DNA from: Candidatus Latescibacterota bacterium
GTDB lineage: Bacteria > Latescibacterota > UBA2968 > GCA-2709665
Length of the DNA: 64,000 nt
Assembly (NCBI GenBank): GCA_965116875.1
Contig: OZ220733.1
Location: 2,720,001 to 2,784,000 of the forward strand
Direction: 5' to 3'
Program-made: the position numbers and the translations under genes
The notes under the pieces: model-generated
Seen by the model: only the letters and a program-made list of their open reading frames with translations
Databases searched by the model: none
Told to the model about the DNA's origin: nothing
Part shown: positions 6,372 to 18,376 of the stretch, in pieces
How the letters are laid out: the number at the start of each line of letters is the position of its first letter
Numbering within the stretch: position 1 is the stretch's first letter

Positions 6372-7175
6372 TCAGGTCGTTGGCTGACGCCGCGCGGCTT
6401 CCCATAACGTCGGCACATCCTGAATGTTTCTGACTTCTGGGAAAAACCGCGCCATGTTGTCGGCGCATATCGATTGGACCATGTCGTCGATGTAGGCCGG
6501 GCTGACGAGGGACTCGATGCGTTCGTTCCAGGTACTCCGGTTCTGATGCCCGCTTCCCGCGTCGAGCGTATCCACCGGTATTCGCAGGAAGTCCGCCAGT
6601 CGCCGATGGGAACAGGCCAGTTCGTGAGTCCTTATCAAGAGCCGCCGGTCCTCCGGGATCTGCCGGGTACACCTGTCGACATGCCCGTTCCAGACATTCA
6701 GATAGGCCGCAACCGAATAAAGCCCTCTCTCTGCGAGCGCGCGATCATGCCGTGAATGGGGATGGTGTTCCGGTTTGGACCACCAGGGTAGGAAATCCAG
6801 GATTTCAGAGGGCATCTCGCGGCTGAGGATGTGCCCGACGGCCGATTGAAGCCACGAATAACAGTCCCGGATGAGCACGATGAACTTCGAAGCGGGGAAG
6901 ACATCCAGCAGATGGCCGATGACGAACTGGTTTGCCCACGAAACATCGTATTCCAGGTTGAGCCGGGCGTCCCGCTCGATTAGAAACTCTCGGAATCCCT
7001 CTGCGGTGACTTCACCGTTGGATTCACGGAGGATCATGTCGAGTAACTCCGGCCGTTCCGGCTCGTGGGCCGCGCGGTAATGCGCGGAAAGCAGCCCCAC
7101 GAGAGATGCCGTACCGGACTTCGCCTGCCCCACGCAAAAAGCTTTGACCCGAACTGGATTGCGATTAACGGTCAT
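6372..7175 (-). CDS. Sulfotransferase-like P-loop protein
   Basis: VGQAKSGTASL (5'-PSB-like), HEPE, FPASKFIVLIRDCYSWLQS (3'-PB-like). Start moved to ATG 7175. Confidence 0.7.
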   Translation of the reverse strand: MTVNRNPVRVKAFCVGQAKSGTASLVGLLSAHYRAAHEPERPELLDMILRESNGEVTAEGFREFLIERDARLNLEYDVSWANQFVIGHLLDVFPASKFIVLIRDCYSWLQSAVGHILSREMPSEILDFLPWWSKPEHHPHSRHDRALAERGLYSVAAYLNVWNGHVDRCTRQIPEDRRLLIRTHELACSHRRLADFLRIPVDTLDAGSGHQNRSTWNERIESLVSPAYIDDMVQSICADNMARFFPEVRNIQDVPTLWEAARRQPTT

Positions 7176-7300
7176 GGTGTTCCCGGAAGCGCCTGAAAGC
7201 GTCGTTTTTCCGACTTGGACAAAATGACGTCGAACTCCGCAATCGATTCGTCCGCAATTCGAAAATTGGACTTCGATTCCAAACGGTGCCCGCGCAGCCA

Positions 7301-7504
7301 TTACGCAGATTGAGAACCGTTGTTGGTTTTTCCAAGGAAACAAGCGTGGTGAACAACGATCTTTCGATCTCTCGTATAGTGTATGTCGAATTCAATAGCA
7401 TCGGCACCGATTTCAATGGCTACTTCAAAGTCCGACAGAGTATTCTCCGGTGCCTTTTGGCCAGAGCCCCGATGGGCATGAATTGCTGGAAAAGACATTG
7501 CCAT
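7301..7504 (-). pseudogene. Glycerophosphodiester phosphodiesterase N-terminal fragment
   Basis: AHRGSGQKAPENTLSDFEVAIEIGADAIEFDIHYTRDRKIVVHH, then a stop at 67 aa, far shorter than a complete TIM-barrel GDPD. Confidence 0.75.
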
Positions 7505-7631
7505 GAAAAAGCTAGTCGCTCAGGGACGAAATCTGGTTTCCAGGGGTGCGTTGATGATCACGATCGCTTTACTGTTCAAAAACCTCGAGGTCGCCGAAGG
7601 CTCGCCAAAAGGTTTCGACTCCTGCCCGAAG

Positions 7632-8231
7632 TCAATTGTCAAATAACATGGCCCCAACGGCTTCAAGTCGATATTGGTCGCCATCGTATGCTATGGTCGT
7701 AACCGAGCATTCTCGAAAGACTTCTCCACCGTATGGGTCATTGCAGAATTTAGGTCTGACGCGAGTCAGCTCTTCAGACGAAAAGACATTGAGAAGGAAG
7801 TCTGCCAGGACACCACCATGGGTCACCCCGATCACCGTATCCCGGGATGACTGACGATAGCGATCGGAAACGAAATCCTCAATGCGCCGCCCGGCCGCTA
7901 CGCTTGAATCACCAACAGCGGGTTGGTAGTTCCGTTCTCTGGAACAGTGCTCCCACTGAGCCATAAATTCATCGAATGATTGGCCCTCAATGTCTCCCCA
8001 ATTCACTCGTTCCCGCAGCCGTGAATCTTCGGTAACTTCGAGATTCAAGACGGCGGCGACGATCCCCGCAGTATCTCTTGTACGTGCCAGTGGACTGCTG
8101 AAGATTCTTGTGATGCCGTGTGTTGCCAACTTCCCGGCGAGCCGTTCCGCCTCTTCCCGACCTTCTCGTGTCAATGGCGGATCGCCGATCCTGTGTTCTC
8201 TCTTACCATGGCGAATAAAGTGACAGCGCAT
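7632..8231 (-). CDS. Histidine phosphatase (phosphoglycerate mutase superfamily)
   Basis: IRHG, DPPLT, SSPLARTRDTA, LRE, VTHGG. Confidence 0.88.
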   Translation of the reverse strand: MRCHFIRHGKREHRIGDPPLTREGREEAERLAGKLATHGITRIFSSPLARTRDTAGIVAAVLNLEVTEDSRLRERVNWGDIEGQSFDEFMAQWEHCSRERNYQPAVGDSSVAAGRRIEDFVSDRYRQSSRDTVIGVTHGGVLADFLLNVFSSEELTRVRPKFCNDPYGGEVFRECSVTTIAYDGDQYRLEAVGAMLFDN

Positions 8232-8292
8232 CAAGTGTACCTGTTTTCCGGTTTTTCTTGTCCACACCCGGGATCGCGCCGAATTCCCTTTG

Positions 8293-8877
8293 TCACGAGT
8301 CAAGAGGTGCAAGGTCAATCGGAGTCAACACGCCGAAAAAGCCATACTTGGTTCCGGAAGGATCTCCTTTCCCGGGTGGAAAGTACTCCTCAATCAAGTC
8401 CAGAAGACGACGGTTGAACTCTGCCGCCTGCTGTTCCGAGAGTCGCGCGCGGTTGTGGTTGACGGAGCTTTGAAAACTCGGCCCGAATATACCGTCCGCA
8501 CTCTCCCGAAACGCTTGGTTGAACTGGAAGGCAACTTCCGAAGGTACCGGCTCGGTGTTTTCAGCATTATTGTCACGTCGGTCCGGGAATCGAATGCTGT
8601 CCGCCGCGGGGATGCAACGCCAGGCCCCGGGGTCACTGCCGGTTTCATTGAGGCGTACGATCTCCGATTCCGCGAGTCGCTCCAGGTGTCGAAGGATGCG
8701 GGAATCAGTCACACCCAACGTCGACGAAATCTCCGCAACGGATTTCCCTTCGCCAAGGGTTTCAAGGATGCGCCGGCGGATGGGGTCTGCGAGCAGACAG
8801 ACTCGCTCGTCATCGATAACAAGCAGAGAACCCCGTCCTGTTTCAACCGGAAATGTGAACTCGATCCAGCCGGCCAT
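8293..8877 (-). CDS. ArsR-like winged-HTH protein
   Basis: LADPIRRRILETL...SVAEISSTLGV...HLERLAESEIV. Start uncertain. Confidence 0.7.
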   Translation of the reverse strand: MAGWIEFTFPVETGRGSLLVIDDERVCLLADPIRRRILETLGEGKSVAEISSTLGVTDSRILRHLERLAESEIVRLNETGSDPGAWRCIPAADSIRFPDRRDNNAENTEPVPSEVAFQFNQAFRESADGIFGPSFQSSVNHNRARLSEQQAAEFNRRLLDLIEEYFPPGKGDPSGTKYGFFGVLTPIDLAPLDS

Positions 8878-8967
8878 CCGGAACCCCCATTTGACTGTCT
8901 TTGACCTCGTTGTATTGAGCAAAAAAACGACTCCAAATGCCATGCAAACCGCATCCTCGGTGTGAGA

Positions 8968-9666
8968 TCACCCGCGACCGACACCCAATATCCGAGGCAG
9001 GTCGGCCAACGAAGCAATCTCGAAATCGGCCTGGATCCCGGTGTCGTTCCTCACGCCATCGCGATTCAACCACACAGCAGGCGCTCCGGCATTGTGCGCT
9101 CCCGCAACGTCGTTTTCCAGAGAATCCCCCACGTGCAGAAGCTGCTCCAGCGGACAGCCCGCCCGGCGCGCGGTAATCTGAAAGATCCGTCGATCGGGCT
9201 TCTCAATGCGCACATCCTGAGAAAACACAACGAAGGCAAATCGTCCTTCAAGTCCGCAGCGTTCGGGATAGCTGTTCCCGTTTGACAGAAGTCCGATCCT
9301 GAAATGCGGTGTCAGAATGTCCAGAGTCGGCAACACATCCGGATACAATTCGATGTCCTCAAACCGGTGCTTCCGATATACCTGATTCAGATGAAGAGCC
9401 AGATTTCTGTCGTGGCAGCCAACGCGCTCAAGCGTCCTCTCGAATGCAATTCGTCTGATTTCCGAAAGATTCCAGACCTTGCCCCTCAATTCGTCGGAAA
9501 CCCGATCGCGAATGTCAATCATCTCGTCTACCGTGAGGCGCGATGCAGGCTTTGTAGGGACCTTCCTGCGCAGTTCCACCAATGCGTGTTTCAGCGAATG
9601 CCTCATGACCTTATGAAAATCCCACAGGGTCATGTCGCCGTCAAATGAAATCGCTGAAATTCGCAA
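8968..9666 (-). CDS. HAD-family hydrolase
   Basis: FDGDMTL, LSNGN, EKPDRRIF, HVGDSLENDVAGA. Confidence 0.88.
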   Translation of the reverse strand: MRISAISFDGDMTLWDFHKVMRHSLKHALVELRRKVPTKPASRLTVDEMIDIRDRVSDELRGKVWNLSEIRRIAFERTLERVGCHDRNLALHLNQVYRKHRFEDIELYPDVLPTLDILTPHFRIGLLSNGNSYPERCGLEGRFAFVVFSQDVRIEKPDRRIFQITARRAGCPLEQLLHVGDSLENDVAGAHNAGAPAVWLNRDGVRNDTGIQADFEIASLADLPRILGVGRG

Positions 9667-9688
9667 GGTTTCCGCCTCCGGCTGACCT

Positions 9689-12474: not shown

Positions 12475-12689
12475 GAGCCGTGCGACTCGAATGGCTCAGT
12501 CTTGCCTGCTCGATATTCATCAAGGGCCTCATTTGCAAGGCTTGATAATTGCTCTGCCGTCGAGTCAAATGCGCGTTCCCACTGGCGCTCTGACGCCAAC
12601 TCCGCCATAAGGACGGCCGCAATCGCGTCCTGCTCATCATTCGAAAGCTTTTTGATTTCCGAAATCGCTGTTTCGAGGAGTTGAGTCAT
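12471..12689 (-). CDS. Putative antitoxin of the downstream RelE/ParE-like toxin
   Basis: 72-aa acidic protein (MTQLLETAISEIKKL..EQDAIA...W...F...LANEAL.EYRAGKT); ATGA overlap with the toxin start. Confidence 0.75.
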   Translation of the reverse strand: MTQLLETAISEIKKLSNDEQDAIAAVLMAELASERQWERAFDSTAEQLSSLANEALDEYRAGKTEPFESHGS

Positions 12690-12862
12690 TTAAGCCTCCA
12701 AATCTGGAGTACCCTACGTTTAGAGAGTTGCTCTGTAACTTGATTCATGAGTGCAACCTCTTCGCGAGGATGCCCACTAAGCCATCCGTTAATTGCGGTT
12801 CCGATTGCGCCTAGAGCTTGAAACGCAACTTTGTCAAAGTCGATAGTTTCTGGGTATGCCAT
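12686..12862 (-). other. Possible 58-aa ORF or gene remnant in lower-GC DNA
   Basis: Manual translation MAYPETIDFDKVAFQALGAIGTAINGWLSGHPREEVALMNQVTEQLSKRRVLQIWRLK*; the stop overlaps the antitoxin ATG. Confidence 0.3.
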
Positions 12863-13172
12863 CTTCAGTGACCCTTGAAGGAAAACTCCAGAATTCGTTG
12901 CTTCTTCACATCACGACAGAACTACCGAAGATATCCTTCACTCCCAAGGATTCGCGACTGTACGGAAACGCATCACCCTGAAATTTCTGCGCAACAAATA
13001 TACTAAAAAATGCCCCGTGAGGGGCATCATCTTTGGTTAAAACCAATCTGCTTTCTCTTCATCAGTGATCCAGTGGGATTCAGAAAACCGAGTTATCCTG
13101 TTCCGTGGCCGGGCAGCGGAATCTGTGGGGTAGTCATCCTTGGTACGCACAGGATGTCGTCCAACTGGACAG

Positions 13173-13406
13173 TCAGGGGACCGCAGGCGTTACGTCTCTG
13201 ACATGTAGAATTTCACCCGCCATAGGAGAACGTACGGCGGAATCTTCCAGGGTGAGAACGGCGATAGTTGTGCCGCGGGTATCGACGAACTCGACCTCGG
13301 ACGCTTCCTTGTCCTCGTATCTATGCACCACCGCCCCGACGTCGCCTGCCTCCAGGCCGTGTTCAACTATCGATTCCTTGAGAACGACCAGATCCAATTC
13401 AGTCAT
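13173..13406 (-). CDS. DUF4926 domain protein
   Basis: ELDLVVL...HGLEAGDVGAVVH.Y....EVEFV...G.TIAVLTL. Confidence 0.82.
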   Translation of the reverse strand: MTELDLVVLKESIVEHGLEAGDVGAVVHRYEDKEASEVEFVDTRGTTIAVLTLEDSAVRSPMAGEILHVRDVTPAVP

Positions 13407-13435
13407 CTTGAATCGATCTCTCCAGACTTGATCCC

Positions 13436-16400
13436 CTAAGCGATCAGCGCGGCGGCTTTTTCCTTGAGCGCGGGCAACAGGTCGTCCGCCGCACGTTCGA
13501 GCGCGGCGAGCGCTTCATTCGCCTGTTTCAGGTCCCCTTCGCGCGCCATGATTTCCAGCCGCAGCGCCGCCTCCACGGTCGAGTTGGCAAGAAAGACGGC
13601 CGCCGAGCCCTTCAGCGTATGCGCCGCGCGCCGCAGCAGGGTGCTGTCGCCGTGGCCGATCGCCCGCTTCATTTCTTCGAGGTGCCTGGCGTATTCCGTA
13701 ACGAACAGCCCGGCCAGTTCAGCCAGAATCGCCTCGTTACCCCCAACCTGATCCAGCGCCCCCTGCCAATCCAGCTCGCCGCCGTCAACGCCGGTCTCCG
13801 TCGGCATTTCATTGTCCGATGGGACATCGGTTTCCACAATATCGTAGAGGTCTCCCGCCCGGATGGGTTTGGGGAGATAATCGTCCATTCCCTCTTCCAG
13901 GCAACGTTCCCTGTCGCCCTGCATCACGTGGGCCGTCATCGCCGCAATTCGTACGTGTTCCCCTGTCGACCGTTCGCTTTCCCTGATCATTCGCGTTGCC
14001 TCCAGTCCGTCCATCTCCGGCATCTGGATATCCATGAGGATCAGATCGAACGTGTCGTTCTCCAGCGCCGCGAGCGCTTCCTTGCCGTTGTTGACGGCCG
14101 TAACCCGGTGGCCGCGCGGCTCGAGCAGGTCCACAATCACTTTCCGGTTGACCAGGCCGTCCTCCGCCAGCAGGACGCGACGCCTGTCGGCGGGCGGTAC
14201 AGGTTCCAGTATTCTGGGTACATCCACAGTCTGGACAACACTCACCTGCAATGCTTCCAACGTGGCATCGAGCAGGTCGGACTGCTTGACCGGCTTTGTC
14301 AGACACCGGGCAAGCCCCAACGCGTCACATCGCACGGCGTCGTGGGTTCTTCCCGCCGATGAAAGAATCAGTATCGGTACGCCCTTCGCCGCGGGATCCT
14401 CCCGAAGACGCTCCGCCAGGGCGAATCCGTCCATATCCGGCATCACCGCGTCCAGAAGAAACAGGTTGAACGGCTGATCCGTTTCGCCGGCCTTCCGAAG
14501 CGCCTCGAGCGCCGCCGGACCCGATTCCGCGACCTCGATCTTCATGCCCCAGGTTCCGAGCATCTCCTCGAATATGAACCGGTTCGTACGATTGTTGTCC
14601 ACCACCAGCGCACGGAGGCCCACCAGGGTCTGCAGGTCGGCCGCCGACCGCTTCGCCAACGGAGGCTGAGCCTCGAAGACCGCTGTGAAACAGAACGTAC
14701 TTCCCTTGTTCAGTTCGCTTTCCACCCACATCCGCCCGCCCATCATCGAGGCGAGTTGAGATGAAATCGCTAGGCCCAGCCCTGTGCCGCCGAACCTCCT
14801 GGACGTAGAAGAGTCGACCTGGCTGAACGATTCGAAAATCAACCGCTGATCTTCGGGTGCGATGCCGATTCCCGTGTCCCGCACAAAGAACCTCAGACGA
14901 ACGGTGTCTTCTTCCCGGGCGTCCACTTTCACGTCGACCAGCACGTCACCCTTTGCCGTGAACTTGATTGCATTGTCCACCAGATTGATCACGATCTGCC
15001 TCAGACGCCCGGGATCGCCAAGCAGCCGGTCAGGAACGTCCGGAGCGACGTGGCACGCCAGCTCCAGCCCCTTCTGAGTGGCTTTGACCGCGAGGGTCTG
15101 CACGGTATCCCCCAGCGTATCCCGGAGGTCGAAACCGATTGCCTCCAGGTCCAGCCTGTTCACTTCCAGCTTGGAAAAGTCGAGGATATCGTTCAGGAGC
15201 GCCAGCAACGCTTCGGAAGACTGTCTGCTCAACTTGAGGTACTCGCGCTGTTGGGGCGTCAGTTCCGTGTTACCCAACAACTCCGTCATGCCCATGATGC
15301 CGTTCATCGGCGTGCGGATCTCGTGGCTCATATTGGCCAGAAACTCGCTTTTTGCACGATTCGCCTTTTCCGCAATGTCTTTGGCTGCCTGCAGTTCCGC
15401 CCCCGAGCGCTCCAGGGCGACCGTGCTTTTCTTCAGCGCTTCGTTCGCCTCACGCTCCGCGGCCGCGGTCTTTTCCAGTTCGCGGTTCTTTTCCTGAAGC
15501 TGTATCTCGGCGTGCTTGCGCAGTGTGATATCCCGGACCGTGCCGATCATATGCACGTTCTGGCCCTCCGTGTCGCCAAATACGCGCCCTTTGTTTCCGA
15601 GCCAACGGATCGTCCCGTCCGGCCAGGCCACCCGGTGCTCCACTTCGAAACCCACCCCTTCCTTGATCGTTCGCCGCACCGCACCGCGGACCATTTCCCG
15701 GTCTTCGGGATGCACGAGTTCATAAAACGCTTCGCGCGTACCCTGGAATTCCTCCGGTTTGAGACCGAACAACGGCGCCACCAGGTCCGACCAGACCAGT
15801 TCACCGGTCAACAGATTGGAGTCCCAACTCCCCATACGGGCGGCTTCCATGGCCAGCTTCAGTCGGGCCTCGCTTTCTCTCAACGCTTGCTCCGATCGTT
15901 TCCGTTCGGAATCCACGTCTGCGAGAGACCGGGCGTACCACCAGATCAGAATATTGAGCGCTACGATTACCCCAAGCGAAAACAGGGACATTCCGGACTC
16001 GAACCCCAGAATTCCCTCGCCGTGAGGCCAGAGCCAACCCAGCGCCAGGGGTATCAGGAAAGCAGCCGGCAGCAGCCTGCGCGCCATCGACCCGCCGGCC
16101 GTTGTGCTGACAATTGTCGTGGTGGGCTCAAGGGCCGGCCGTGACAGAAACATGCCGATGCACAACAATCCGAACGCCAGTGTGGTATAGACGCTCAGAT
16201 GTACGTCCCACGATACCTCCCTGGGGGAGACCGCGTGGTAGAAGTGGCCGACCGCGTAGCCCGCGGAGAGGATGGAGGCGATCGATAGGCACGTCTGCGC
16301 CGGCCAGGCGTTTTCGCGGATACGGAAATGCCAGAGAAACAGCGCCAGGCCGATGAGAGCGAAGTTGCACGCTTCATCTCGCAACATGTGCCCGGCGCCC

Positions 16401-16708
16401 GCGCCGAACCCGATAAACTCGGGGCCCGCGCCGATCAACTCCAGGATTGCGAAGACAACGACGACCGCGCCGATTGCCTTCCCCAGAAACTGCCTGCGCG
16501 CGGACGACCTGCCGCTGCGAAGGAGCCACAGCGCCACGCCGGTAAGCACGAACATGCCCGCCGTCAACAAAGACATCCATTCGGCCACGGGTGCGCTGAC
16601 CTGCCATCCCGCCAGAACCAGGACGGACAGCATGACGACGATCAGATTCGCCGTTTGCGCGGCGATCGCGGCAATCCGGACCAGACGCGGATCTGCGTAA
16701 TCGTCCAT
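13436..16708 (-). CDS. Hybrid (unorthodox) sensor histidine kinase: TM-PAS-HisKA-HATPase-REC-REC-HPt
   Basis: Multi-TM N-terminus; PAS (VHPEDRE, WPDGTIRW); FLANMSHEIRTPMNG; NLVDNAIKFT, DTGIGI, GGTGLGL; two REC domains (LLDAVMPDMDG, LMDIQMPEMDG); HPt (AAHTLKGSA). Confidence 0.95.
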   Translation of the reverse strand: MDDYADPRLVRIAAIAAQTANLIVVMLSVLVLAGWQVSAPVAEWMSLLTAGMFVLTGVALWLLRSGRSSARRQFLGKAIGAVVVVFAILELIGAGPEFIGFGAGAGHMLRDEACNFALIGLALFLWHFRIRENAWPAQTCLSIASILSAGYAVGHFYHAVSPREVSWDVHLSVYTTLAFGLLCIGMFLSRPALEPTTTIVSTTAGGSMARRLLPAAFLIPLALGWLWPHGEGILGFESGMSLFSLGVIVALNILIWWYARSLADVDSERKRSEQALRESEARLKLAMEAARMGSWDSNLLTGELVWSDLVAPLFGLKPEEFQGTREAFYELVHPEDREMVRGAVRRTIKEGVGFEVEHRVAWPDGTIRWLGNKGRVFGDTEGQNVHMIGTVRDITLRKHAEIQLQEKNRELEKTAAAEREANEALKKSTVALERSGAELQAAKDIAEKANRAKSEFLANMSHEIRTPMNGIMGMTELLGNTELTPQQREYLKLSRQSSEALLALLNDILDFSKLEVNRLDLEAIGFDLRDTLGDTVQTLAVKATQKGLELACHVAPDVPDRLLGDPGRLRQIVINLVDNAIKFTAKGDVLVDVKVDAREEDTVRLRFFVRDTGIGIAPEDQRLIFESFSQVDSSTSRRFGGTGLGLAISSQLASMMGGRMWVESELNKGSTFCFTAVFEAQPPLAKRSAADLQTLVGLRALVVDNNRTNRFIFEEMLGTWGMKIEVAESGPAALEALRKAGETDQPFNLFLLDAVMPDMDGFALAERLREDPAAKGVPILILSSAGRTHDAVRCDALGLARCLTKPVKQSDLLDATLEALQVSVVQTVDVPRILEPVPPADRRRVLLAEDGLVNRKVIVDLLEPRGHRVTAVNNGKEALAALENDTFDLILMDIQMPEMDGLEATRMIRESERSTGEHVRIAAMTAHVMQGDRERCLEEGMDDYLPKPIRAGDLYDIVETDVPSDNEMPTETGVDGGELDWQGALDQVGGNEAILAELAGLFVTEYARHLEEMKRAIGHGDSTLLRRAAHTLKGSAAVFLANSTVEAALRLEIMAREGDLKQANEALAALERAADDLLPALKEKAAALIA

Positions 16709-16720
16709 ATCAACTGCTTC

Positions 16721-18376
16721 CTACGGAAACAGGCCTCTCAGGAGTTTCGCCTGCGTCACGCGGTGAATTCCTTCGATCAGCGCCGCCGTGCGTATATCCA
16801 GGCCATCGCGTTCGGACCGTTGAATCGTCCGCTGGAACGCATCGAGCAGAATCTGCCTGAGTCGGTCGTTGATCTCCTCCAGCGTCCACACGTAATTCTG
16901 CGTGTCCTGTACCCACTCGAAATAGGAAACCGTAACCCCTCCGGCATTGCCGAGTACATCAGGCAGAATAAACACCTCTCTTTCCTTCAGGATCTCATCC
17001 GCTTCGAGGGTTGTCGGTCCATTGGCGCCCTCGGCCAGGATTCTGCACGAGATCCGTTCGGCGTTGTCGGCGTTGATCTGATTCTGTATCGCGGCGGGAA
17101 CGAGGATGTCGCATGGGATTTCCAGCAATTCCCTGTTGCTCACGGCGTCTCCGTTCTCGTAGCCTTCCAGGACCCGGTTTTCGTCCGCGTGCCGCAGCAG
17201 CGAATCCACGTGCAATCCGTCAGGATTGTAGATACCGGTGGTCACGTCGCTCACGCCCACCACCGTGACCCCGCAGGCTTCGAGGAATCTCGCCGCGCTG
17301 CTTCCCACGTTTCCGAACCCCTGCACGACGGCGGTCGCGCCATTCAAGTCCATCCCGATGTGTCTGGCCGCCTCTTCGACCAGATACACCAGTCCCCGTC
17401 CGGTCGCTTCGCGGCGTCCTTCGGAGCCGCCAAGCACCACCGGCTTGCCGGTTACGACGGCGGGTACGGTATGTCCCATCTGATGGCTGTACGTGTCCAT
17501 CATCCAGGCCATCACGTTTTCGTCCGTGCCCATGTCCGGCGCGGGGATGTCCTTCTGCGGTCCGATAACGTCGATGATCTCCGACGTGTACCGCCGTGTC
17601 AGCCGCTGCAGTTCGCGCCGGGAAAGGACGGTTGGATCGATGCGTACGCCGCCCTTCGCGCCGCCGAACGGGAGGTTCATCAGGGCGCACTTCCACGTCA
17701 TCCACATGGCCAGGGCGGTGACTTCGCCCAGGTTCACGTCGTGATGGTAGCGCACGCCTCCCTTCGTGGGCCCCATCGTCAACAAATGTTGAATCCGGTA
17801 GCCGGCAACCGTCTCCACGTATCGGTGCTCGTCCCGCCGGAACGGAAACGTGACCACGTGGGTACGCTGAGGAAACAGCAGCCGCTGCCGGATATTGTCG
17901 TCCAGTTCCATCAGGTGCGCGGCCTTCAGGAACTGCTGCTGCGCCAGGCGGAACATCGGCGACTCCCACTCGGCGTGCTGCGCCCGGCTGCGTTCCACGG
18001 CGTATCGGATCGATCTCACCAGGAGCGGGCCGTCCAACTGTGATTTCACCAGATAGTCCTGCGCTCCCGCCTCAACCGCCCGCGCCGCCAGCTTGATGTC
18101 CTCCATTCCGGAGAGGATCACAACGGTCAGATCCGGATACGCGGCCCTCACGCGCAGATACGTCTCCAGGTCCTCGCTGTCCGGCAGTACCAGGTCCAGC
18201 AGCAGCAATTCGTATCCGCCGACAGCGAGCCGGTTCAGCCCTTCCGCGAGCGTACCCGACGAATCCACCTCGAATCCCGGGCCGTCGGACTCGGCAAGCA
18301 GTTCCTGAATCAGGCGGCTGTGAAGCGGATTGTCTTCAATCAACAACGTTTTCAGGTTTGTGCCCGGCATCGTCAC
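16721..18376 (-). CDS. Response-regulator receiver domain fused to a Glu/Leu/Phe/Val (glutamate) dehydrogenase
   Basis: About aa 1-130 REC (LIEDN, LLDLVLPD, ILSG, GAQDYLVK), then GDH motifs GPTKGGVRY, MTWKCA, PFGGAKGG, DIPAPDMGT, QGFGNVG, EGANGP, NAGGVTVSYFEWVQ in one frame. Confidence 0.93.
   Translation of the reverse strand: MTMPGTNLKTLLIEDNPLHSRLIQELLAESDGPGFEVDSSGTLAEGLNRLAVGGYELLLLDLVLPDSEDLETYLRVRAAYPDLTVVILSGMEDIKLAARAVEAGAQDYLVKSQLDGPLLVRSIRYAVERSRAQHAEWESPMFRLAQQQFLKAAHLMELDDNIRQRLLFPQRTHVVTFPFRRDEHRYVETVAGYRIQHLLTMGPTKGGVRYHHDVNLGEVTALAMWMTWKCALMNLPFGGAKGGVRIDPTVLSRRELQRLTRRYTSEIIDVIGPQKDIPAPDMGTDENVMAWMMDTYSHQMGHTVPAVVTGKPVVLGGSEGRREATGRGLVYLVEEAARHIGMDLNGATAVVQGFGNVGSSAARFLEACGVTVVGVSDVTTGIYNPDGLHVDSLLRHADENRVLEGYENGDAVSNRELLEIPCDILVPAAIQNQINADNAERISCRILAEGANGPTTLEADEILKEREVFILPDVLGNAGGVTVSYFEWVQDTQNYVWTLEEINDRLRQILLDAFQRTIQRSERDGLDIRTAALIEGIHRVTQAKLLRGLFP

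Follow-up and report, generated by a model that had tools for sequence, protein, structure and literature searches.

Two-component systems are almost always regarded as switches of transcription, or else as systems that control second messengers or chemotaxis. Among the response regulators that carry enzymes, CheB is held back by occlusion of its active site, which phosphorylation relieves. Signalling also reaches the glutamate/2-oxoglutarate node by other routes: GarA/OdhI of the Actinobacteria is an FHA protein phosphorylated by a Ser/Thr kinase, and moonlighting of the Bacillus subtilis glutamate dehydrogenase (GDH) RocG with the transcription factor GltC is established. Here we analyse a 64,000-nucleotide stretch of a Candidatus Latescibacterota genome (assembly GCA_965116875.1, contig OZ220733.1, positions 2,720,001 to 2,784,000; hereafter the window), in which one gene encodes a receiver domain (REC) joined to a GDH, the enzyme where carbon and nitrogen metabolism meet, and the next encodes a hybrid sensor histidine kinase (HK) that ends in a histidine phosphotransfer (HPt) domain. 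An earlier note on this DNA had proposed that the kinase switches the fused enzyme, REC-GDH, by phosphorylation. The REC-GDH module is real and conserved; response regulators with enzyme outputs are known, and a GDH output has already been catalogued. The present analysis adds counts of kinase linkage with an unfused control, the conservation of the relay residues, an inventory of the sensor domains, the observation of a single HPt in the genome, and a series of decaying relatives.

Receiver, dehydrogenase and hybrid kinase at one locus

The REC-GDH gene occupies positions 16721..18376 on the minus strand. The earlier note described a protein of 551 residues; this length holds for the open reading frame (ORF), which runs from GTG 18376, and the protein itself probably starts at ATG 18370 (MPGTN..., 549 residues), as in the 96%-identical relative P0003 and most homologues. 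Residue numbers below follow the 551-residue translation. Pfam finds three domains in it, all above their cut-offs: Response_reg (PF00072) at 11-113, with 52.8 bits against a cut-off of 30.2, ELFV_dehydrog_N (PF02812) at 169-298 (176.8 bits) and ELFV_dehydrog (PF00208) at 316-548 (267.4 bits). The single frame thus joins an intact receiver to a full GDH, as had been read from the letters alone, and the receiver, catalytic and Rossmann motifs that had been named are each present at their place.

The receiver spans residues ~8-130 (17987..18355, minus strand) and contains the acidic pair E14/D15, the phospho-acceptor D61 (codon 18194-18196), S89 and K111, within the motifs IED at 13, LLDLVLPD at 59, ILSG at 87 and YLVK at 108. 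When the query was aligned with its 120 best relatives, E14, D15, D61 and K111 were 100% conserved in the 121 sequences, and position 89 was always Thr or Ser (Thr in 88%, Ser in the query). Conservation within the domain peaks at β3 (0.89), α4 (0.83) and β5 (0.79). Judged by these phospho-chemistry residues, the receiver half appears functional.

The GDH half comprises domain I (residues 169-298; 17483..17872, minus strand), with K205-G-G, K229, G238-G-A-K241-G-G and D281, and the NAD(P)-binding domain (residues 316-548; 16733..17431, minus strand), with G353-F-G-N-V-G358 and S484. Its motifs are KGG at 205 and 241, MTWK at 226, GGAKGG at 238 and GFGNVG at 353. Across 61 fused sequences K205-G-G, K229, GGAK241GG, D281, G353xGxxG358 and S484 show no variation; their catalytic, substrate-binding and cofactor roles we take to be those assigned in the GDH literature. 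Residues 3-416 of the Thermotoga maritima GDH 1b26 align end to end with residues 138-551 of REC-GDH (E 4e-139), and the catalytic and cofactor residues of the two line up. With these residues invariant and the alignment complete, the GDH half also appears functional. All matches in the PDB begin at query residue 134 or later, and no solved chain among them includes the receiver. Scores against the NCBIfam equivalog models lie below the cut-offs (GdhB_Halo, 501.3 vs 620; GdhA_Arch, 477.4 vs 750; PRK09414, 273.3 vs 536), so that by sequence score REC-GDH is a member of the GDH family outside these named orthologue groups.

Between the two halves lies a junction of residues 131-168 (17873..17986, minus strand), which contains the end of REC α5 (116-137), a two-residue break and the first GDH helices (EWxSPMF...LAQQQFLKAA). 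In the AlphaFold2 (AF2) model, built from a 61-row alignment, α5 is a long helix at 116-137 and the GDH helix 140-155 follows two residues on. The closest unfused relatives, L008 and L016 (68-73% identical), begin just before the motif EWDSPMF. This motif therefore belongs to the N terminus of the GDH, and the true linker is a few residues long. The AF2 monomer has a mean pLDDT of 74.3 and a pTM of 0.62; the receiver and the NAD(P)-binding domain are confident, most of the latter with pLDDT >90, and GDH domain I is poor. A predicted complex of REC (1-135) with GDH (139-551) scored 0.00, which carries no weight either way on docking.

The fusion could in principle be an artefact of assembly or annotation in which two genes were wrongly joined, and the earlier note had pointed to the junction near 17960 as the place to look for a chimera. 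There, contigs from four of four sequencing runs, belonging to four different studies, span the REC/GDH junction. Two of them (X1 record 1 and X2 record 15) show 0 differences from the window, although X1 may be the source of the window DNA; the other two come from related strains (X3 record 21, 14 differences; X4 record 31, 2 differences). The gene lies in a single-contig genome of 5.45 Mb and its frame is open without stops. In a search of 5.8 billion proteins, all 120 of the best cluster representatives had the architecture PF00072 + PF02812 + PF00208, with lengths of 539-566 residues and identities of 69-96%, and finished plasmid sequences from cultured Sinorhizobium fredii strains contain the fusion as well. 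Given this record, the chance that two genes were wrongly joined is close to nil. Candidate rearrangement joints in the contigs of the runs all had sides of <30 nt, fell on conserved GDH motifs and lay in metagenome contigs; we read them as GDH genes of other organisms and rejected them.

The partner gene encodes a hybrid (unorthodox) sensor histidine kinase of 1090 residues (13436..16708, minus strand; ORF and Pfam). A 12-nt spacer (16709..16720, minus strand) separates the REC-GDH stop codon, TAG 16721-16723, from the kinase ATG at 16708, and on this spacing the two genes are likely co-transcribed. The N-terminal residues ~1-260 (15929..16708, minus strand) form a putative multi-pass membrane region with at least five Kyte-Doolittle segments of at least 1.6, and a Pfam scan of these ~260 residues matched no family. 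They are followed on the same strand by a PAS_3 sensor domain (residues 304-391; 15536..15799), a transmitter composed of HisKA (452-515, with H462) and HATPase_c (564-675; together 14684..15355), a first receiver, REC1 (residues 702-805, with D753; 14264..14608), whose acidic pair is replaced by D-N, a second receiver, REC2 (13835..14176), which the receiver scan finds canonical (E849, D850, D893, T925, K947), and the HPt domain (Pfam residues 997-1077; 13478..13720), with H1030 in HTLKGS. The Pfam domains, the hydrophobic segments and the start codon agree with the description in the earlier note of a membrane kinase with PAS, two REC domains and an HPt 12 nt after the stop of REC-GDH. In NCBIfam the kinase matches BarA and TorS best, and it scores below the equivalog cut-offs of both (487.8 vs 890 and 475.8 vs 676.5) and of ArcB (356.8 vs 838).

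Linkage to the kinase and history of the fusion

The same architecture is found well beyond this genome. From species-representative genomes we collected 89 distinct fused loci, 12 from a first search and 78 from a second, L136 being the same contig as L006. A query of the receiver plus linker matched 188 stretches, a number that is an upper bound, since the search patterns sit in the GDH N terminus. With these 89 loci and the 120 best cluster representatives, the fusion is not unique to the window, which answers the architecture search suggested earlier. Record titles place the fused loci in Latescibacterota, Gemmatimonadota, Planctomycetota, Zixibacteria, Myxococcota/Bradymonadia, and Alpha- and Gammaproteobacteria. 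Among cultured bacteria, the fusion occurs for example in Sinorhizobium fredii, Ensifer, Leisingera, Phenylobacterium, Sphingobium, Nitrococcus mobilis, Halomonas stenophila, Billgrantia, Pontibacterium, Roseiconus and Lujinxingia. The S. fredii gene is plasmid-borne, for instance on the NGR234 megaplasmid pNGR234b, with a hybrid kinase downstream; its RefSeq name there is only 'Glu/Leu/Phe/Val dehydrogenase dimerization domain-containing protein', and elsewhere in public records the family is labelled 'response regulator' or 'glutamate dehydrogenase'.

Two of the collected loci call for separate mention. On plasmid pSfreNXT3a of S. fredii NXT3 (L160, 52840-57482), RefSeq splits the kinase into a 'PAS-domain containing protein' and an overlapping 'hybrid sensor histidine kinase/response regulator'; either a frameshift in that strain or its annotation may account for the split. 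A locus of a Gaiellaceae metagenome-assembled genome (MAG; L055) was rejected as a fusion; it has a separate response-regulator gene of 212 residues (6992-7630) followed by an unfused GDH (8030-9679). It represents a second kind of REC-GDH neighbourhood, with the response-regulator gene 5' of an unfused GDH.

Linkage was scored by comparing all ORFs of at least 80 residues in the 89 loci with the window's kinase core (440-680) and HPt (985-1090) by phmmer, and a match within 500 nt was counted as adjacent. An HK or HPt ORF was adjacent to REC-GDH in 73 of the 89 fused loci, and in 60 of the 65 that have at least 3 kb on both flanks. In the control set of unfused GDH loci the corresponding counts were 0 of 68 and 0 of 46. 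The kinase is thus a conserved neighbour, a point on which the earlier note had asked for a test. Both HK and HPt were found at 66 of the linked loci; four had the HK only, all cut by a contig end, and three the HPt only, of which two were cut by a contig end and the third (L100) has an HPt ORF of 269 residues. In 51 loci the partner gene follows REC-GDH on the same strand; in 17, and in one further overlapping ORF call, it precedes REC-GDH on that strand; and in four it lies downstream in convergent orientation. Five loci (L012, L134, L146, L156 and L158) carry the HPt as a separate small gene between kinase and REC-GDH. A Pfam scan of first-batch neighbours found HisKA-HATPase-2xREC-Hpt, or an HK with a separate Hpt, in six of six.

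The residues required for a relay are conserved on the kinase side as well. When 61 partner kinases were aligned with the window's own (n=62), the H-box His was present in 60, the remaining two being gaps, and the REC1 Asp, the REC2 quintet and the HPt His were present in all 62. The transmitter-REC-REC-HPt module has a median identity of 51% to that of the window. The D-N pair of REC1 characterizes the window's clade and occurs in 15 of the 62 kinases; the Thr/Ser position of REC1 is Val or Ala in nine of the 62. By these substitutions REC1 may be a regulatory pseudo-receiver, and REC2 may be the relay station.

The sensor stretches of the kinases differ. We scanned 43 of the 66 partner-kinase stretches, leaving out near-duplicates, together with the window's own. 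The largest class (18 of 43 loci) matched no Pfam family and consists mostly of regions of ~315 residues. A membrane region with PAS_3, as in the window, was found in four, dCache_1-HAMP-PAS-PAS in six (dCache_1 being above the Pfam cut-off in only two of these), CHASE in five, two PAS_7 in three and several PAS_3 in two. One locus each had GAF-PAS, TorS-like-HAMP-PAS_7, a single PAS, DUF4154, or two extra receivers. The sensor domains are exchangeable while the transmitter-REC-REC-HPt module stays. Three loci from Gimesia MAGs (L106, L109 and L111) have an upstream dCache_1-HAMP-PAS hybrid kinase with HPt and, convergent and directly downstream of REC-GDH, a second histidine kinase of ~850 residues that has no HPt.

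To place the fusion we built a FastTree phylogeny of 152 GDH domains, 84 fused (including the window) and 68 unfused, leaving out six fused loci in which a contig end truncates the GDH; midpoint rooting was used for drawing only. All 84 fused domains are gathered in a single clade of 86 rows (SH-like support 100). The two other rows of this clade are the unfused pair L008 and L016, which is nested among the fused sequences, and the unfused L017, L018 and L036 form its sister. The label 'fused' requires 2 changes on the tree, compared with a mean of 50.3 when labels are shuffled. By this tree the fusion had a single evolutionary origin.

The five well-flanked loci that have no adjacent kinase (L007, L009, L119, L140 and L149) all lie in one sub-clade of 21 rows (SH-like support 82), which by record titles is centred on Planctomycetota. 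This sub-clade also contains the only degenerate receivers (L007, L009 and L013, with D15 changed to Gly or Ser and T89 to Ile) and the receiver-less L008 and L016; the grouping inside it is weakly supported (48). Degenerate and lost receivers are confined to the sub-clade that holds these kinase-less loci, and therefore receiver integrity tracks the presence of the kinase. The sub-clade reads as a decay series, in which the kinase would have been lost first, the active site of the receiver would then have eroded, and the receiver would finally have been lost. Such a series is expected if the job of the receiver is to take phosphate from that kinase.

The persistence of these degenerate receivers also bears on a different explanation, in which the receiver is a structural or oligomerisation pseudo-receiver with no phospho-switch, like the CheY-like wing domain of the large amino-acid decarboxylases, and the kinase serves something else. 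The three Planctomycetota loci keep a fused receiver with the signature EGDIK or ESDIK and no kinase, so the domain can persist without its canonical site, and P2CS lists those decarboxylases alongside GDH (PMC2716373). However, all five phospho-chemistry residues are intact in the window protein and in 86 of the 89 fused loci (EDDTK 55, EDDSK 31, EGDIK 2, ESDIK 1), the kinase is adjacent in 60 of the 65 well-flanked fused loci and in none of the 68 unfused ones, and no degenerate receiver is accompanied by the kinase. We regard a purely structural receiver as quite improbable.

The degenerate-receiver genes are found in MAGs of Pirellulales/Planctomycetota (L007:7004-8647, L009:6962-8650 and L013:2339-3982), with no kinase nearby. 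Their neighbours encode cyclopropane-fatty-acid-synthase-like methyltransferases and DUF1295. On the tree of GDH domains they stand beside L140 and L149, which have an intact receiver and no kinase, and beside the receiver-less L008 and L016.

A candidate phosphorelay onto glutamate dehydrogenase

We consider it likely that the pair forms a His-Asp-His-Asp relay from the sensor kinase through its HPt to D61 of REC-GDH, by which the GDH would be controlled post-translationally. The membrane/PAS kinase would autophosphorylate on H462; phosphate would pass to an internal receiver, most likely to D893 of REC2, and from there to H1030 of the HPt, which would in turn phosphorylate D61 of the receiver at the N terminus of the cell's only ELFV-type GDH. 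The α4-β5-α5 face is the phosphorylation-responsive surface of receivers, and phosphorylation of D61 would be expected to change it. In REC-GDH, α5 is nearly continuous with the first helix of GDH domain I, the oligomerisation core, which suggests that phosphorylation acts on packing or on cleft closure. The changed face could then alter subunit packing or the closure of the cleft, and with it GDH activity, with no transcriptional step. That phosphate is passed on in this way, and that this alters the kinetics or the oligomeric state of the GDH, are predictions read from sequence. By analogy with CheB we have a weak preference for phosphorylation activating the GDH by relieving an inhibition.

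The content of the genome is consistent with a dedicated pair. REC-GDH is the only match to PF00208 in its genome, and a genome-wide search for the large GDH (Bac_GDH) found none. Pfam finds a single Hpt in the whole genome, that of the kinase. Receiver matches number 28 genome-wide, and the three that lie in the window are all in the REC-GDH/kinase pair; no receiver was found in any of the 24 ORFs scanned around it (5.5-27.8 kb). The remark in the earlier note that no other response regulator lies nearby is thereby borne out for the window.

These counts also touch on a different role for REC-GDH, that of a signalling component. Here the GDH would sense glutamate, 2-oxoglutarate or NAD(P)H and tune the gain or loss of phosphate by the receiver, as a phosphate sink or 'trigger enzyme'. 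REC-GDH would thereby modulate the signal of the kinase to another target, or it would moonlight by protein contacts as RocG does with GltC. Alternative targets might be found among the 25 receiver matches elsewhere in the genome, and strong purifying selection acts on the REC and the GDH halves alike, as any model with two working halves would have it. Set against this, the HPt is the genome's only one and the window contains no other response regulator; 66 of the 89 loci have just an HK and HPt beside REC-GDH, with no further REC ORF among those neighbours that were scanned with Pfam; and it is as a unit of two genes that the cassette moves from phylum to phylum. We think it unlikely that REC-GDH acts in this way.

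Several observations weigh against the relay to D61 as we have drawn it. In five of the 65 well-flanked fused loci the kinase is missing beside REC-GDH, and L119, L140 and L149 among these five still have an intact receiver, with no kinase within ~5 kb. The 25 other receivers of the genome could in principle be served by the HPt. The D-N pair of REC1 leaves the choice of the phosphate-carrying internal receiver unsettled. In the AF2 model the pLDDT of GDH domain I falls below 50 in parts, so the placement of REC relative to GDH is not fixed by the model. Finally, the direction in which the GDH would be regulated is a guess.

The three loci with an intact receiver and no kinase would also fit if REC-GDH were phospho-regulated by another donor, either a different kinase or acetyl phosphate, from which many receivers take phosphate in vitro; GDH would then follow the carbon or energy status of the cell and not the signal sensed by the kinase. 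This explanation sits poorly with an adjacency that is both strong and specific, with a kinase module that has kept a median of 51% identity alongside REC-GDH, and with the single HPt of the genome. We hold it to be rather improbable, and the adjacent kinase remains our preferred donor.

A broader proposal builds on the relay. On balance, and with less assurance, we lean towards the view that a horizontally mobile two-gene cassette wires a phosphorelay onto GDH and switches its activity or assembly within seconds, and that lineages re-aim it at different cues by swapping the sensor of the kinase (dCache, CHASE, GAF, PAS or membrane modules). Should phosphorylation indeed change the activity of the GDH, bacteria of at least six phyla would possess a valve that responds quickly to signals and sets the glutamate/2-oxoglutarate flux without recourse to gene expression. 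As for the metabolic role in the present organism, glutamine synthetase and a GltB-type glutamate synthase of 1544 residues are both present in the genome. Ammonium assimilation is therefore not dependent on REC-GDH, and a catabolic or conditional role would fit.

The DNA around the pair offers few further clues. A scan for sigma-70 promoters upstream of REC-GDH gave nothing convincing; a TTGACA hexamer lies ~75 nt 5' of the ATG, without a good -10 partner at 16-18 nt. About 400 nt past the kinase stop there is a terminator-like hairpin with a T-run (13009..13028, minus strand), a consensus match only and a weak one, with 6 such sites compared with 5.0 expected from shuffles. It is bidirectional and lies within ~800 nt past the kinase (12641-13435) that have a G+C of 0.52, compared with ~0.61, and no ORF with a Pfam match. 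The neighbouring genes are ordinary ones, for an aldo/keto reductase, a GFO/IDH/MocA oxidoreductase, an M3 peptidase and a tautomerase.

Comparison with known systems

Full-text literature searches turned up no experimental work on a receiver-GDH fusion; Galperin's censuses of response regulators, which may mention the architecture, were outside their scope. The novelty implied by the earlier note is to be reduced: the architecture is common and carries annotations in public records, and in 2009 GDH already stood among the enzymes associated with two-component systems (PMC2716373). Table 1 of P2CS (Barakat et al. 2009, PMC2716373) gives glutamate dehydrogenase, EC 1.4.1.3, as 'Probable' in two-component proteins; that entry is a catalogue line only, without partner kinase, comparative analysis or experiment. 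A paper on GrtK/GrtR of Burkholderia glumae (PMC12918730) concerns transcriptional control only. Two further matches from the searches, on Wolbachia (PMC4426382) and PIRSF (PMC2674652), had no bearing on REC-GDH and were set aside.

If the proposal of a mobile switch cassette is borne out, we believe that it would be the first demonstration that two-component signalling can gate a primary metabolic dehydrogenase directly. The cassette is present in cultured, genetically tractable hosts (S. fredii NGR234, Halomonas, Sphingobium, Leisingera and Nitrococcus), which makes the hypothesis directly testable, and the decay series offers ready comparison proteins, in which the kinase is lost, the receiver degenerate or the receiver lost.

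The architecture of REC-GDH is closest to that of CheB, PleD/WspR (REC-GGDEF) and RpfG (REC-HD-GYP), which likewise have an N-terminal receiver on a catalytic domain and a cognate kinase encoded nearby; in such proteins the signal bears on catalysis instead of on transcription. The outputs of those proteins are signalling enzymes, whereas the output here is an oligomeric central metabolic oxidoreductase, and the output domains are non-homologous. As an enzyme, REC-GDH shares its catalytic and cofactor motifs with the hexameric GDHs of ~50 kDa (1b26 and 2tmg of T. maritima; 3k92, RocG of B. subtilis), and by homology a hexamer is predicted for it; unlike those solved structures, it has a receiver at its N terminus. 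The kinase resembles BarA/GacS, TorS and ArcB in a HisKA-HATPase-REC-HPt relay to a separate receiver protein, but it has two receivers before the HPt, and its presumed target has an enzyme where theirs has a DNA-binding domain. With GarA/OdhI and RocG-GltC, finally, the proposed system would share post-translational, signalling-linked control at the glutamate/2-oxoglutarate node. Those systems act via separate partners, whereas REC-GDH has the phospho-acceptor domain within the enzyme itself.

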